Shown: positions 1,428 to 9,942 of the stretch, piece by piece
How positions within the stretch are numbered: position 1 is the stretch's first letter
Layout: the number at the start of each line of letters is the position of its first letter
Sequence record: NC_054912.1
Length of the DNA: 64,000 nucleotides
Strand: one strand, 5' to 3'
Source: Escherichia phage vB_EcoM_F1
Notes under the pieces: generated by a model
Seen by the model: only the letters and a program-made list of their open reading frames with translations
What the model was told of the DNA's origin: nothing
Databases searched by the model: none
Program-made: the position numbers and the translations under genes

Positions 1428-1958
<531 letters not shown>

Positions 1959-4870: not shown

Positions 4871-4900
4871 ATTATATCATGCTATTTAAGAGATGTAAAC
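4871..4900 (-). promoter_or_regulatory. early-type promoter GTTTAC-N18-TATAAT for the coiled-coil gene
   Basis: minus-strand GTTTAC 4900-4895, TATAAT 4876-4871. Confidence 0.5.
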
Positions 4901-5402
4901 TATTTTTAATTTTACAAATTCGTTCAGCTTCTTCAACAGCGGCGGCGATAATGCTTTTAGCTATAGGAGTACTAATACTAGTAGCTTTTACACTTAACAC
5001 GATTTCTTTATCTTTACCAGGCCAACCCCACGATTTTTCACCATGAGTGCCTTTAATTACAGCAGACACCTCAAGTGAGCATCCATTATCACATGTTTTT
5101 ACATTAACAACCCAAGGATCACTTTTCTCAACCGGTTTATCAAACGGTTTATCCCAGTAAATATTAAGAGTACGTGGGACATCAAATTTAGCAGGGCAAA
5201 TCTTAACCGTAAGACCTTCGCTTTCTAGCCAATTAATAAGAGGGCGTTCATACATGCGGCGATGTGGGCTTTGAACTCGACAAGCTTTGTACCCATTGCT
5301 TGCGGCTTCACTAAGCTCTTCTAATACCTGCTTTTGCATTATTGATAAGATACCATCAAAAGATTTTTCGGAAGTTTCATTCAGTTCGGTATAAAGAGAC
5401 AT
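4872..5402 (-). CDS. hypothetical protein
   Basis: track ORF begins at TTG 5417; first ATG at 5402 with GAGGAAA RBS; 176 aa from ATG. Confidence 0.5.
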   Translation of the reverse strand: MSLYTELNETSEKSFDGILSIMQKQVLEELSEAASNGYKACRVQSPHRRMYERPLINWLESEGLTVKICPAKFDVPRTLNIYWDKPFDKPVEKSDPWVVNVKTCDNGCSLEVSAVIKGTHGEKSWGWPGKDKEIVLSVKATSISTPIAKSIIAAAVEEAERICKIKNSLHLLNSMI

Positions 5403-5428
5403 AACAGTTTTCCTCAAATTATAGGCTC

Positions 5429-5458
5429 ATAATATCTCAATCATGAGCCTATGTAAAC
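5429..5458 (-). promoter_or_regulatory. early-type promoter plus stem-loop cassette (GTTTAC-N18-TATTAT)
   Basis: GTTTAC 5458-5453; 10 bp inverted repeat ataggctcat/atgagcctat 5421-5452. Confidence 0.45.
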
Positions 5459-5722
5459 TTATTTCATATTATTGAAATATTCTTCTGCGATTTCATCGTT
5501 ATCATGGTAAACTTTAGAAGACAGTTTAACATAACCTTCAGCAGTGAACATATTAATCACAACCTTTACAGTATACCACTGTCCGTCTTCATTACCCATT
5601 ACTGCGTAAGTTTCAAACATCGGATGGTCAGGACCGATAACTTTAATATCATTCACTGTACGACCAAAATCTTCTGAAACGCATTTCATAAAGAAGTTGA
5701 ACAGTTCGCCGTAATTATCCAT
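5459..5722 (-). CDS. hypothetical protein
   Basis: ORF 5459-5776; the first ATG lies inside the predicted promoter -10, so the ATG at 5722 with GGAGA RBS is the likelier start. Confidence 0.45.
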   Translation of the reverse strand: MDNYGELFNFFMKCVSEDFGRTVNDIKVIGPDHPMFETYAVMGNEDGQWYTVKVVINMFTAEGYVKLSSKVYHDNDEIAEEYFNNMK

Positions 5723-5766
5723 TTCATTCTCCAAGTTGTTTTTCTGTATCAGTAGTTGATAGTTGT

Positions 5767-5796
5767 ATAGTACCATGGAAGAACAGGGATGTAAAC
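5767..5796 (-). promoter_or_regulatory. early-type promoter GTTTAC-N18-TACTAT
   Basis: minus GTTTAC 5796-5791 preceded by TTTCACAAA, -10 TACTAT 5772-5767. Confidence 0.45.
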
Positions 5797-5924
5797 CATT
5801 TTGTGAAAAAAATTTTTAAAAGTTTTAGGGAATTCTAGGGAGGGATGGGCAATTAAAGGATAGGATAATATATTATAAAGGGTATAAACTAAATGATGCC
5901 TAGAGAGGTCCAGAAAGGCCTAGA

Positions 5925-5959
5925 TACCAAAAAGCCCCAACCTTTCGGCTAGGGCTAAG
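5925..5959 (-). repeat. 35 nt direct repeat copy 1 (terminator cassette)
   Basis: taccaaaaagccccaacctttcggctagggctaag; second copy at 6484-6518 with 3 mismatches. Confidence 0.8.
5928..5956 (-). terminator. rho-independent terminator hairpin with GAAA tetraloop and T-run (minus strand)
   Basis: stem agcccc...ggggct 5933-5956 with A-run 5928-5932 on plus; directly after the stop of ORF 5964-6437. Confidence 0.6.
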
Positions 5960-5963
5960 AATG

Positions 5964-6437
5964 TTATTTGATTTGTTTAGCAGACCAAATGCGGTCTTTA
6001 ATAATTTTTTGGATGTCTTCAACATACTCAAGAGAGTGAGCATGTGGGTTATCTTTGAAACTATAAGCACGAGCTAGTTTTTGGCCTTCAGTTTTGATTA
6101 CTAAAAGCTCTTTAAGGATAGCTTCATATTTGGAGATAATTCCTTTAACAATATTTTTCTCTTGTGCGACTTTAGGATCTGCTTTAGGAGCAGGTTTACC
6201 CGAAGCCTTTGCAAAAGCAGCGCCAGTAGCAACTAAACTTTTCCAGGCCATACTAACTGCATTTCCCGTAAATCCTTCCGCTTTCATGTCGCGTGCGAAC
6301 TGGAATCGTGATTCATCAGAAGCATCTTTGTAAGAATATTTACCCGCTGCAATGGCTGCTTTTGCGACAGCTTGAATTTCGGTGCTAGATGCTTCATTTA
6401 ACACCGCTTCATTTAAAAATTGAGTATATGATTTCAT
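5964..6437 (-). CDS. internal-protein-like protein with capsid-targeting-sequence-like N-terminus
   Basis: 157 aa; N-terminus MKSYTQFLNEAV resembles T4 IP CTS; Ala/Lys-rich; late promoter upstream; flanked by repeated terminators. Confidence 0.6.
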   Translation of the reverse strand: MKSYTQFLNEAVLNEASSTEIQAVAKAAIAAGKYSYKDASDESRFQFARDMKAEGFTGNAVSMAWKSLVATGAAFAKASGKPAPKADPKVAQEKNIVKGIISKYEAILKELLVIKTEGQKLARAYSFKDNPHAHSLEYVEDIQKIIKDRIWSAKQIK

Positions 6438-6477
6438 CTTATTTCCTGTTTTAATTCGTGGATTTAATATACTACTA

Positions 6478-6485
6478 TATTTATA
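6478..6485 (-). promoter_or_regulatory. T4 late-promoter box TATAAATA upstream of the IP-like gene
   Basis: minus-strand TATAAATA directly after the terminator T-run, then AGGAAA RBS and ATG at 6437. Confidence 0.55.
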
Positions 6486-6518
6486 CCAAAAAGCCCCAAC
6501 CTTTCGGTCGGGGCTAAG
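6484..6518 (-). repeat. 35 nt direct repeat copy 2 (terminator cassette)
   Basis: taccaaaaagccccaacctttcggtcggggctaag. Confidence 0.8.
6487..6515 (-). terminator. rho-independent terminator ending the tRNA / stable-RNA transcription unit
   Basis: hairpin 6492-6515 plus T-run on minus strand. Confidence 0.6.
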
Positions 6519-6824
6519 CCTTGCGGCAACCTTGTCGGGGTTCCACCTGCTAAGGCAAGTGTTTGTACGAAACGCCGGGATTCGAACCCGGTTATTAAGC
6601 AGTTGACGCTACTCAATATTTTTAAAAGGCCATATCTCGACCATATCCGAACGTTCCGTCAAAAACGCTACTCGGCTTATGGCAAAGATATTTCCTCGAA
6701 TCGATAATTCGGTGCGCCGTTTCTGCTGTGATGTAAGAGGGCATCAATAAACGCAAAGATTATTAACGCAATTCCTTACTCAGGGAACATCAGTCCGACG
6801 ACTTACCGGTAGCGACCCGGTTTC
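6516..6824 (-). ncRNA. putative small stable RNA gene(s), position of T4 rnaC/rnaD (species 1/2 RNAs)
   Basis: about 310 bp with no ORF of 60 aa or more in any frame in a dense genome; tRNA-like T-arm ccgggTTCGAATcccgg at 6578-6592; between tRNA-Arg and a terminator. Confidence 0.3.
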
Positions 6825-7175
6825 TTAATATTCTTTTAAAGAATCAATATATTCACGGCGTTTACGCCACAAATCAATTGCTTCATACGCGGATTCAGCA
6901 TTTCGAATTGGTCGGCATTTATGTAAAGACTTATGATTTTGATATTTTGTAGATAATGGAATTTTATCTAAAAGGTCTTTACGTTCAAAGTATTCGTAAC
7001 CATCTAAGCCAAATGAACGATTTTTGAGAAATTGCCAATGACCAAATTCGTTTTGAATATAAATATAATCCGCATGTTGATAAAGTAAATTAATTTCACG
7101 AAATGAGATATGTTTTTCATATTCATTGAAGTAAAATGTTAAATCATGAACTACTAAATAAACATTACCTTTCAT
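6825..7175 (-). CDS. hypothetical protein
   Basis: track ORF extends to 7223 into tRNA-Arg; ATG at 7175 with GAGGAAA RBS gives a 116 aa product without overlap. Confidence 0.45.
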   Translation of the reverse strand: MKGNVYLVVHDLTFYFNEYEKHISFREINLLYQHADYIYIQNEFGHWQFLKNRSFGLDGYEYFERKDLLDKIPLSTKYQNHKSLHKCRPIRNAESAYEAIDLWRKRREYIDSLKEY

Positions 7176-7193
7176 ATTTTCCTCACTTATAAT

Positions 7194-7270
<77 letters not shown>

Positions 7271-7273
7271 TAA

Positions 7274-7939
7274 TTAAAATTTCATTTTTCGACCTTTAAA
7301 CCATCCTTCTGGAATTGGGTCAGTTTTCTTAATACGTTTAGAAACTTTTTCATCTAATGAATGAATCCACATCATACCAAATTGGGAATTCTTTTCACCT
7401 TTCTGGTGATTATTTTTAGCGTGAATTTCTTTCATTTTATTAATAGTTTCAAGAGTATGATGCTTATTTAAAAATCTGCTATTATTTAAAAATTTTTCCC
7501 TGTATTCAGGAGTTGACCACAAGCGTTTAAATACATTTGAACCATGTTTACGATATTTTTCTTGAAGTAAAATATCATTTTTAAAACGTGACTTAAACGA
7601 TTTAGCTCCTTTTAAACTAGCGTCTTTCTTCTGGTTTAGCATCTCAGGAATATTTATATGATCCCATCCGCCTTCACCGCCAAGTTTTAAATTATACACA
7701 TCTGGTCTATTTAAAAACTCTTCTGTGACAATATTTTTCTCGGCTTCAAGCATAGATTCTTTATCATCAAAATATTCTAATATTTCTTTAGAAAAATTTT
7801 CTATACCATACCTGTCTTGGGCTCTTTTTAATAATTTACCAGAACCCATATATCCATCATCTAAATTTTCGGTAGAATGCACACCAATATAAATTTTATT
7901 ATTAATTTTATTTGTTATTTTATAAGTGTAATGGAACAT
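7274..7939 (-). CDS. segB: GIY-YIG homing endonuclease (SegB-like) within the tRNA cluster
   Basis: 221 aa; N-terminal GIY-YIG module YKITNKINNKIYIGVH..DGYMGSG; same size and position as T4 segB. Confidence 0.85.
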   Translation of the reverse strand: MFHYTYKITNKINNKIYIGVHSTENLDDGYMGSGKLLKRAQDRYGIENFSKEILEYFDDKESMLEAEKNIVTEEFLNRPDVYNLKLGGEGGWDHINIPEMLNQKKDASLKGAKSFKSRFKNDILLQEKYRKHGSNVFKRLWSTPEYREKFLNNSRFLNKHHTLETINKMKEIHAKNNHQKGEKNSQFGMMWIHSLDEKVSKRIKKTDPIPEGWFKGRKMKF

Positions 7940-9504: not shown

Positions 9505-9575
9505 TTTATTCTCCTCAGTAGTTGATAGGGTAATAGTATCACAACTAAAACCCTATGTAAACAACTTTGTGAAAA
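9505..9575 (-). promoter_or_regulatory. early promoter plus stem-loop cassette, copy A (GTTTAC-N18-TACTAT)
   Basis: TTTCACAAAGTTGTTTACAT on minus strand; GTTTAC 9562-9557; TACTAT 9538-9533; stem atagggt/accctat; about 45 nt shared with copy B. Confidence 0.5.
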
Positions 9576-9579
9576 TTTA

Positions 9580-9870
9580 TTACAAAAGATTTTTTGCAAT
9601 AATTTTAAGCTGAGCTACTGAAATATGCTTGGCTTTAAACAAAGCAGTTTCTTCAGCAGGGGAGATAACGATTGTAGCACCATCTTTCTTAGCGGACCAT
9701 CCATCACCCAGGTAAACAGTACCTTTGACTTCTTCGCCATCAACCAGACTAATCATTGGTTTACCTTCTCGTCCTTTATTTGCTTTAATAACTTCAGAAG
9801 TAAGAGTAGCTTCGGTAATAGTAGAAACCGGGGTAGTTGTAGTAGAAGTAAATTCTTTAAATGTTTTCAT
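9580..9870 (-). CDS. internal protein I-like head protein with CTS-like N-terminus
   Basis: 96 aa; N-terminus MKTFKEFTSTT..ITE; size and position (between tRNAs and 57B) as for T4 ipI; sequence diverged. Confidence 0.6.
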   Translation of the reverse strand: MKTFKEFTSTTTTPVSTITEATLTSEVIKANKGREGKPMISLVDGEEVKGTVYLGDGWSAKKDGATIVISPAEETALFKAKHISVAQLKIIAKNLL

Positions 9871-9942
9871 TTTATTTTCCTAATTAATTTTGATGAGGTA
9901 ATAGTATCACTACCTCATCAGCATGTAAACAACTTTGTGAAA

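Follow-up and report, generated by a model that had tools for sequence, protein, structure and literature searches.

A probable accessory internal head protein encoded between terminator repeats downstream of rnaC in Escherichia phage vB_EcoM_F1

Introduction

Which kind of protein is encoded by the small gene that lies between two copies of a terminator-like direct repeat, directly downstream of the stable RNA gene rnaC, in Escherichia phage vB_EcoM_F1? We addressed this question for a stretch of 64,000 nucleotides (nt) of this phage (sequence record NC_054912.1), hereafter called the window, in which the gene is found on the minus strand as open reading frame (ORF) 5964-6437. A first-pass annotation, made from the sequence alone, had described it as a cassette inserted by recombination between duplicated terminators, coding for a protein with a capsid-targeting sequence (CTS) like that of the internal proteins (Ip) of phage T4, and had suggested that it could be a new anti-defence effector injected with the DNA. 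Our analysis leads to the conclusion that the product of ORF 5964-6437 is probably an accessory internal protein of the head, of the T-even Ip kind, expressed from a late cassette. The description as a CTS-bearing, internal-protein-like cassette is borne out by an empty site in T4, by the mapped leader positions and by the presence of an orthologue, g140 of phage fD1, in virions. In the following, genes of the type of ORF 5964-6437 (RB32ORF132c) are called gene A, and genes of the RB69ORF149c type are called gene B.

An Ip protein in a repeat-bounded cassette is a well-known kind of gene, of which ORF 5964-6437 is an uncharacterised member. As a sequence, the gene is not new: it is RB32ORF132c, which is found in hundreds of genomes (about 510 phage records), its flanking repeat was noted in the GenBank record of RB51 in 2009 ('flanked by 34 bp imperfect direct repeat') and an orthologue was detected in virions in 2021. 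Apparently new is the recognition of RB32ORF132c and RB69ORF149c as leader-bearing paralogues at a third Ip locus bounded by terminator repeats. No source that joins these facts was found among those consulted, which did not include Comeau et al. 2007 with its reported list of over 30 Ip variants. Literature searches with the names RB32ORF132c, RB69ORF149c and RB51ORF140 gave nothing, those with Ip4 to Ip7 gave inositol-phosphate papers only, and the supplements of Silas et al. 2025 are without gene A or gene B sequences. The product of gene A is nearly always named hypothetical protein; in UniProt, one homologue from a Klebsiella phage bears the name 'Internal head protein', and all other names seen were hypothetical.

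The gene product carries a leader of the Ip type

The CTS of the T4 internal protein IPIII, MKTYQEFIAE, has been mapped in the work of Black, as reviewed in PMC9026906: the first ten residues are enough for packaging, residues 4 and 7 are the main determinants of targeting and residues 8 and 10 those of processing, and gp21 cleaves behind L/I-x-E. The product of ORF 5964-6437 begins MKSYTQFLNEAVLNE (MKSYTQFLNEAVLNEASS) and, in agreement with the first-pass annotation, matches IPIII at all four mapped positions (Y4, F7, L8 and E10). It thus possesses both targeting residues, Y4 and F7, as well as the gp21 motif at residues 8-10 (L8-N9-E10), followed by a second one (L13-N14-E15), both recognised by the motif alone. 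When ten homologues, down to 37% identity, are aligned, no variation is seen at M1, F7 and L8 and position 4 is occupied by either Y or F, whereas residues 9-17 carry indels, as would be expected where a leader is attached to a variable body. The pattern is also recognisable in distant relatives, since a 53%-identical metagenomic homologue begins with MLKFNEFLAE and the Klebsiella homologues begin with MKFKEFLAE.

In order to see how rare such a leader is, the pattern M-K-S/T-aromatic-x-x-F-hydrophobic-x-E/T, which was composed after the sequences had been seen, was applied to all 594 Met-initiated ORFs of at least 40 amino acids (aa) in the window. It matched three of them, namely ipI, ORF 883-1356 and ORF 5964-6437, and the other two are known internal proteins: IPI (PF11634) and a DUF7412/phrog_3155 internal virion protein. 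The latter, ORF 883-1356 on the minus strand, codes for a 157-aa protein with the leader MKTYQEFITE/AAINSQIIAE/, is located beside the lysozyme gene e where T4 has ipIII/ipII, and its product matches DUF7412 (PF24183) and phrog_3155 'internal virion protein'. A direct BLASTP comparison revealed no homology between this product and that of ORF 5964-6437.

The gene is arranged as a probable late-expression cassette

The 35-nt direct repeat with three mismatches that had been placed on both sides of the gene (5925-5959/6484-6518) is present, and it extends by one base to 36 nt (5924-5959/6483-6518). Two matches to the repeat were found in the window, compared to none in 100 dinucleotide-preserving shuffles. 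On the minus strand, both copies form a hairpin of 10 bp, with GAAA as its loop and TTTTT behind it, as the first-pass annotation had stated for the loop; both were scored as terminator-like in a terminator scan, and both show the G+C-rich hairpin directly followed by a U-run of rho-independent terminators. All three mismatches are in the 5' arm, where the pairs are kept by wobble (C-G to U-G, G-U to A-U and A-U to G-U). Since each mismatch keeps its base pair, both hairpins appear to be maintained.

The upstream copy is situated about 50 nt beyond the 3' end of rnaC, the final gene of the tRNA/stable-RNA transcription unit, and the cassette follows directly downstream. In the T4 record X03016, the equivalent of this copy, after the species 1 RNA, is labelled as a potential terminator, which agrees with the earlier claim that the upstream copy also terminates this unit. 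The distal copy starts 5 nt past the stop codon of ORF 5964-6437 and is the terminator of the cassette gene. The predicted late box was found on the minus strand as well: TATAAATA, the T4 late-promoter -10 element, lies 41 nt upstream of the ATG, shares two bases with the end of the upstream repeat and directly adjoins the T-tract of the terminator. By itself, the octamer is not rare (25 occurrences in the window compared to 9.8 expected), and it is therefore the position of TATAAATA that matters and not its presence. No sigma-70-like promoter was called at 6438-6530 (minus strand) or in the distal repeat copy.

With this late promoter, a ribosome binding site, the ORF and a terminator, the region would probably function as a self-contained late-expression cassette. 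Transcription of the tRNAs, rnaD and rnaC would stop at the hairpin at 6492-6515, as suggested by the sequence and the T4 annotation, and late in infection a short monocistronic mRNA would start from TATAAATA and end at the hairpin at 5933-5956. In order to assess whether these signals are kept, 17 gene A loci were compared. A [T/A]ATAAATA box a few bases past the T-run of the upstream terminator and before the start codon was found at 16 of the 17 loci, across genera, and the sole exception is a locus at which gene A directly follows gene B. A hairpin plus T-run within a few bases 3' of gene A is present at all 17 loci, although the hairpin sequence differs by genus. The late expression expected of prohead components is thus indicated by the sequence.

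A probable third Ip locus holds gene A, gene B, both or neither

In tblastn searches, gene A was found in 510 phage records. The identity was 75-100% in phages of Escherichia, Shigella, Yersinia, Salmonella and Citrobacter, and Klebsiella T4-like phages gave partial matches; the rnaC flank is common to about 820 records. The place of gene A, after the tRNA cluster and ahead of e.8/e.6, is shared by Tequatrovirus, Mosigvirus and Yersinia phage fHe-Yen9-01. The comparison of related T-even genomes that had been proposed in the first-pass annotation revealed at least four states of the e.8-rnaC locus. An empty locus is found in T4, T2, RB10 and PST; gene A is the sole occupant in the window and in RB32, RB51, RB68, Bas40 and Bas42; gene B, split into ORF148c/149c, is the sole occupant in RB69; and in phiC120, OE5505, Bas46 and two IMG/VR genomes, A is present with B after it. 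In fHe-Yen9-01, the interval from the tRNA cluster to the e.6 homologue contains a B-like gene back to back with an A-like one. Gene A is thus non-essential and polymorphic among close relatives, like genes of the Ip type.

Gene B, which RB14 carries as well, codes for 187 aa, was found in 165 records, and its product begins with MKTYAEFLTEAAKL, with the leader MKTYAEFLTEA. It carries its own [A/G]ATAAATA box and its own terminator, CCCTATC-taaat-GATAGGG, which differs from the hairpin of gene A and shares only the ...GGGCTTTTTGGTATCTAGGCC tail with it. By BLASTP, the A and B products align only over the 11-residue leader, and their N-terminal domains are unrelated. Their C-terminal helical hairpins, however, are homologous in a profile-profile comparison (93.9% probability, E 1.5e-7), both genes are in phrog_2280 and the products have a similar Pro-rich linker. 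Because of the homologous hairpins and the common phrog, the A/B family looks modular, with a shared leader, a different N-terminal domain and a shared C-terminal hairpin. The e.8-rnaC interval is a third Ip locus beside the two named in the literature.

Some copies are damaged. In OE5505 (L004 988-1868), gene A is without leader (the ORF begins MKHLAPKF...) and only 106 aa remain of gene B; the split of gene B in RB69 was seen at L005 765-1327. These broken copies represent either decay of dispensable genes or sequencing frameshifts. In two T4-like IMG/VR genomes, L012 (3019-3573) and L015 (2904-3563), a different ORF of 184-219 aa follows gene A within a variant terminator repeat pair (AGGCCCTTCCGAAAGGTTGGGCC); its product has a hydrophobic N-terminus (MKLLKYLSWVLLVPLDF...) and no leader, and it represents a third kind of passenger at this locus.

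An orthologue is present in purified virions

For the T4-like Yersinia phage fD1 (phiD1), ultracentrifuge-purified virions have been analysed with liquid chromatography coupled to tandem mass spectrometry (Skurnik et al. 2021, PMC8309999). Protein g140 of this phage (67942-68415, 157 aa), which is 98.7% identical to the product of ORF 5964-6437 according to tblastn, is listed in Table S3 of that study as an upper-case PPAP, a label that stands for two or more peptides and a mean spectral count of two or higher, and the entry carries the remark that T4 has no similar protein (PMC8309999). The presence in purified virions that was to be checked according to the first-pass annotation is therefore on record through this orthologue, albeit in a permissive list. 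In the same study, the e.8 product, which is encoded next door to g140, was not detected in virions, and g129, the homologue of the 883-1356 product, was detected and named 'head protein' (PMC8309999). Together with the leader, the detection of the orthologue makes it very probable that the product of ORF 5964-6437 is a packaged internal protein.

Several points count against the proposed Ip-type protein and its late cassette. The virion list of fD1 comprises 113 of 277 products, including DenV, lysozyme, NudE and thymidine kinase (PMC8309999), and since it contains such non-structural enzymes, detection of g140 by itself is weak proof of packaging. The box of Mosigvirus is AATAAATA and not TATAAATA. 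Gene A is broken or leaderless in some genomes, e.g. OE5505, which means that it is dispensable there or that the sequence contains an error. ORF 5964-6437 is under purifying selection, with low dN/dS values (0.05-0.21) that differ from those one might predict for a fast arms race. Finally, processing, injection and phenotype of the gene A product are predictions from the motif and from analogy.

According to a rival explanation, the product would not be functional head cargo: the likeness of its leader would be inherited or fortuitous, it would act late in the cytoplasm, and its detection in virions would be carry-over. The plainly non-structural enzymes on the particle list and a leader processing deduced from the motif would suit this explanation. 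We consider it very improbable, since the leader is the best-conserved short segment in a family that diverges to 37% identity, is common to gene B, the product of which is otherwise dissimilar in its N-terminal half, and matches the CTS at all mapped positions. In addition, the gene has a late-type promoter, as prohead components would have, and the product of the neighbouring e.8 went undetected in fD1. The low AlphaFold confidence for the leader (pLDDT below 50 at residues 6-15) says nothing for or against a role as cargo.

The empty site in T4 has its junction within the repeat

T4 has no gene between e.8 and rnaC and contains the repeat only once. On the left, this single copy is flanked exactly as the distal copy is in the window, on the right exactly as the proximal copy is, and its hairpin is the same as that of the proximal copy. 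Because the single copy of T4 has both outer flanks, the filled and the empty state differ by one repeat plus the gene, and the junction lies inside the repeat. The TATAAATA box is not present at the T4 empty site.

The two terminator copies could serve as substrates for homologous recombination, and a deletion of the cassette would then yield the single-copy site of T4, T2 and PST; alternatively, recombination between them could move the cassette, as in the PeSL model discussed below. The first-pass annotation had proposed an insertion by recombination within a terminator repeat. The part of this claim that concerns the junction is supported by T4, whereas the direction is not: since gene A occupies the same position in several genera, its loss in T4, T2 and PST appears at least as likely as a gain in this lineage, and the comparison of loci does not decide the direction of change.

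An insertion into a once-empty terminator site in this lineage, e.g. by integration of an excised mini-circle, as opposed to an ancestral cassette that was lost from T4, is an option towards which we do not lean. The filled and empty topologies are exact reciprocals of each other and the mini-circle model can run in both directions, the stem of the T4 copy is identical to the proximal copy and not a hybrid, and the late promoter moves along with the cassette, all of which would be consistent with an insertion. On the other hand, the gene has the same position in at least three genera, among them distant ones with diverged terminators, and it is present in 510 of the approximately 820 records having the rnaC flank. 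Moreover, a deletion crossover 3' of the three variable stem positions would likewise leave a proximal-type copy.

Features of the protein and possible functions

The predicted mature product has a mass of about 15.5-16 kDa, a pI of about 9.5 and 24 lysine plus arginine residues. An AlphaFold2 model (pLDDT 77.5) is all-alpha and consists of a low-confidence leader helix, an N-terminal domain of three helices (residues 18-71), a disordered Pro/Lys-rich linker (75-87) and a long C-terminal helical hairpin (88-154). The family is small and restricted to T4-like phages: an exhaustive HMMER search among 1.8 billion representatives gave 11 matches, three of which were spurious. The latter (P0017-P0019) are Ig-like repeat proteins that were matched via a repeated 'AAGSYSYKA' motif.

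Searches for relatives of known function remained negative. Pfam gave no family for ORF 5964-6437, the IPI_T4 profile PF11634 being unmatched, and the sole Pfam line, Shikimate_dh_N (E = 0.12), was discarded as noise. PADLOC gave no match, a sequence-profile search of the PDB gave designed coiled coils only (E >= 0.025), Foldseek gave no match against the PDB at E <= 0.001 and only the protein's own family against BFVD, and there was no structural match to the nuclease-inhibitor fold of IPI*. A homology to a structural or housekeeping protein without CTS, which would speak against an internal protein, was thus found neither by Pfam nor by the PDB profile and Foldseek searches.

Based on the match to the IPIII leader and the orthologue in virions, we propose that the ten-residue leader MKSYTQFLNE would send the protein to the scaffolding core of the prohead. 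As suggested by the motif, gp21 would cut the leader off behind the L-N-E that ends at residue 10, the one that ends at residue 15, or both. An unprocessed product would give the N-terminal peptide SYTQFLNEAVLNEASSTEIQAVAK, whereas cuts after E10 or E15 would give the new N-terminal peptides AVLNEASSTEIQAVAK or ASSTEIQAVAK, respectively. The basic mature protein would presumably remain with the packaged DNA and enter the cell alongside it. Inside the cell, by analogy to characterised Ip proteins, it might neutralise a defence against incoming modified DNA, e.g. a variant of type IV restriction.

The analogy derives from Ip1, Ip2 and Ip3 (IPI, IPII and IPIII), each of which inhibits a distinct GmrSD type IV restriction enzyme, and the proteins of 'the two Ip loci' are all expected by the authors to target GmrSD variants (PMC12373910). 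Bas37_0260, a fourth leader-bearing protein, inhibits McrBC (bioRxiv 10.1101/2025.11.20.689424). Gene A is at neither of the two Ip loci, and we therefore rate a specific anti-defence activity lower than packaging: such an effector is a serious candidate, but falls somewhat short of an even chance.

The main alternative is that the product is packaged, but acts as a generic DNA-associated protein, in charge neutralisation, DNA condensation or ejection, without a specific defence target. The basic charge of the mature protein, its Lys/Pro-rich linker and its simple helical architecture are in line with this alternative, the strong purifying selection is easier to reconcile with a conserved physical role than with an arms race, and lysines of internal proteins were found to contact DNA phosphates by nuclear magnetic resonance of T4 heads (reviewed in PMC3012670). 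However, T4, T2 and PST are without the gene, so that no general role in packaging is required, and IPII and IPIII, which had long been held to be generic basic proteins, proved to be specific inhibitors of GmrSD (PMC12373910). We regard a generic role as unlikely.

As a tentative extension of the anti-defence hypothesis, which we rate as a possibility only, the e.8-rnaC interval may be a third, unrecognised Ip locus for modular injected inhibitors of defences that lack a matched phage counter-measure, e.g. further GmrSD/type IV variants. In such a family, the N-terminal domain would set the target and the terminator repeats would allow members to be swapped.

Comparison to known systems

Gene A resembles the genes of the T-even Ip proteins (Mullaney & Black 1996; Silas et al. 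2025, PMC12373910) with regard to the leader of approximately ten residues with an aromatic residue at position 4, F7 and L/I-x-E at 8-10. It also resembles them in being small, non-essential, variably present and flanked by repeated regulatory elements, and in having an orthologue in virions. It differs in that the mature part of its product is without similarity to them in sequence or fold, and in its location at e.8-rnaC and not at the ipI or ipII/ipIII loci. In addition, ipI of the window has a repeat with an early-type promoter, whereas gene A apparently has a late promoter only.

Bas37_0260, described in the HIDEN-SEQ preprint (10.1101/2025.11.20.689424) and encoded at the ipI locus, is likewise a T-even gene that is recognised only by its N-terminal packaging signal. 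It replaces or adds to the T4 Ip set and shows that such genes can have anti-restriction phenotypes. Unlike gene A, it is found at another locus and its function was shown by knockout; the two are likened here by description and not by sequence. A link of gene A to the HIDEN-SEQ phage Bas37 was sought, but the carriers shown were only Bas40 and Bas42 (A) and Bas46 (A+B).

The arrangement of the cassette can be compared to the promoter-early and promoter-middle stem-loops (PeSL/PmSL) of T4-type phages (Arbiol et al. 2010, PMC2839356; Comeau et al. 2014, PMC4122927). In RB49 and phi1, PeSL-flanked ORFs are bounded by two repeats in one phage where the relative has one, and excision as mini-circles was detected by inverse PCR (PMC2839356). 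The gene A locus shares with these a variable ORF between two short regulatory motifs with a terminator hairpin and a single copy of the motif in a relative, here T4, and the model of recombination-mediated excision and insertion can be applied to the cassette. In contrast to PeSLs, the gene A repeat consists of the terminator hairpin plus T-tract only and lacks a sigma-70-like early promoter. Its promoter is the late TATAAATA box, which is found at the upstream copy only and outside of the repeat, and mini-circles are known for the PeSL system.

A PeSL-like arrangement was reportedly described for Ip loci by Repoila and colleagues in 1994. In the window, ipI is bracketed by a direct repeat TTTCACAAAGTTGTTTACAT...GTGATACTATTACC (9535-9590 and 9880-9935, minus strand), which holds the early-type promoter TTTACA-17-TACTAT; at least the upstream copy has the inverted repeat TGATGAGGTA...TACCTCATCA. 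This repeat is PeSL-like and contrasts with the terminator/late-promoter arrangement of gene A. With terminators at its borders and a late promoter, the gene A cassette carries the PeSL concept over to another class of regulatory repeat.

Among phage proteins, the internal proteins arrive in the cytoplasm first, and the four characterised ones disarm type IV restriction and so set host range. The carriers of gene A and the further 165 records with gene B include many phages isolated for therapy or biocontrol. Gene A is a candidate for unexplained differences in plating between T4 and T2, which are without it, and RB32/RB51-type phages, which possess it. Its location outside of the two Ip loci argues for leader scans of whole T-even genomes and not of the classical loci only.

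Genomic neighbourhood of the cassette

Over positions 5400-7300, the sequence matches Escherichia phage vB_EcoM_FN (MZ170041), which is a Tequatrovirus, at 100% identity, and hundreds of T-even genomes match it at 94-97%; positions in the window correspond to positions in the vB_EcoM_FN genome minus 64000. The region is the accessory block from lysozyme e to gene 57B. On the minus strand, the internal-protein gene 883-1356 is followed by e, the e.x genes, e.8, ORF 5964-6437, rnaC and rnaD, and beyond rnaD by an extra ORF, a tRNA-Arg gene, segB, seven tRNA genes, the tRNA.2-4 ORFs and ipI (Table 1). The gene rnaC is annotated in both RB68 and T4, and Rfam contains no family for rnaC, rnaD or the terminator.

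Table 1 Features of the e.8-rnaC cassette and of neighbouring genes in the window.
Feature	Position	Strand	Remarks
ORF 5964-6437	5964-6437	-	157 aa, ATG at 6437; RB32ORF132c family, phrog_2280
Leader, codons 1-15, MKSYTQFLNE/AVLNE/	6393-6437	-	two L-x-E sites (residues 8-10 and 13-15) for gp21
Shine-Dalgarno AGGA	6444-6447	-	6 nt ahead of ATG; AGGAAA kept at all compared loci
T4 late-promoter -10 element TATAAATA	6478-6485	-	41 nt upstream of ATG
rnaC-proximal repeat copy	6483-6518	-	terminator: hairpin 6492-6515, GAAA loop, TTTTT; -21.6 kcal/mol, z -3.8
Distal repeat copy	5924-5959	-	terminator: hairpin 5933-5956, GAAA loop, TTTTT; -18.5 kcal/mol, z -3.7
Lysozyme e	1428-1922	-	
e.8	5459-5722	-	
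rnaC (species 1 stable RNA)	6566-6704	-	97.8% identity to T4 rnaC, 98.6% to RB68 rnaC (139 nt)
rnaD	6710-6828	-	homology with T4 and RB68
ipI	9580-9870	-	PF11634 (IPI_T4), 172.9 bits

A 116-aa ORF at 6825-7175 (minus strand), of the RB51ncORF141c/RB69ORF150c type (phrog_3355, function unknown), lies between rnaD and the tRNA-Arg gene; since these are adjacent in T4, it represents another indel within the stable-RNA transcription unit. A 176-aa ORF at 4872-5402 (minus strand), of the RB32ORF130c/RB69ORF146c type, sits where T4 has e.7 (111 aa), and e.7 is therefore replaced in the same accessory block. An ORF for a segB-type GIY-YIG homing endonuclease at 7274-7939 (minus strand) is located between the genes for tRNA-Arg and tRNA-Met(CAU)/Ile, like in T4, whereas RB51 and RB68 have a truncated SegB-like gene elsewhere in the tRNA cluster and differ in their tRNA sets, with Asn and Tyr tRNAs that are not found in the window.

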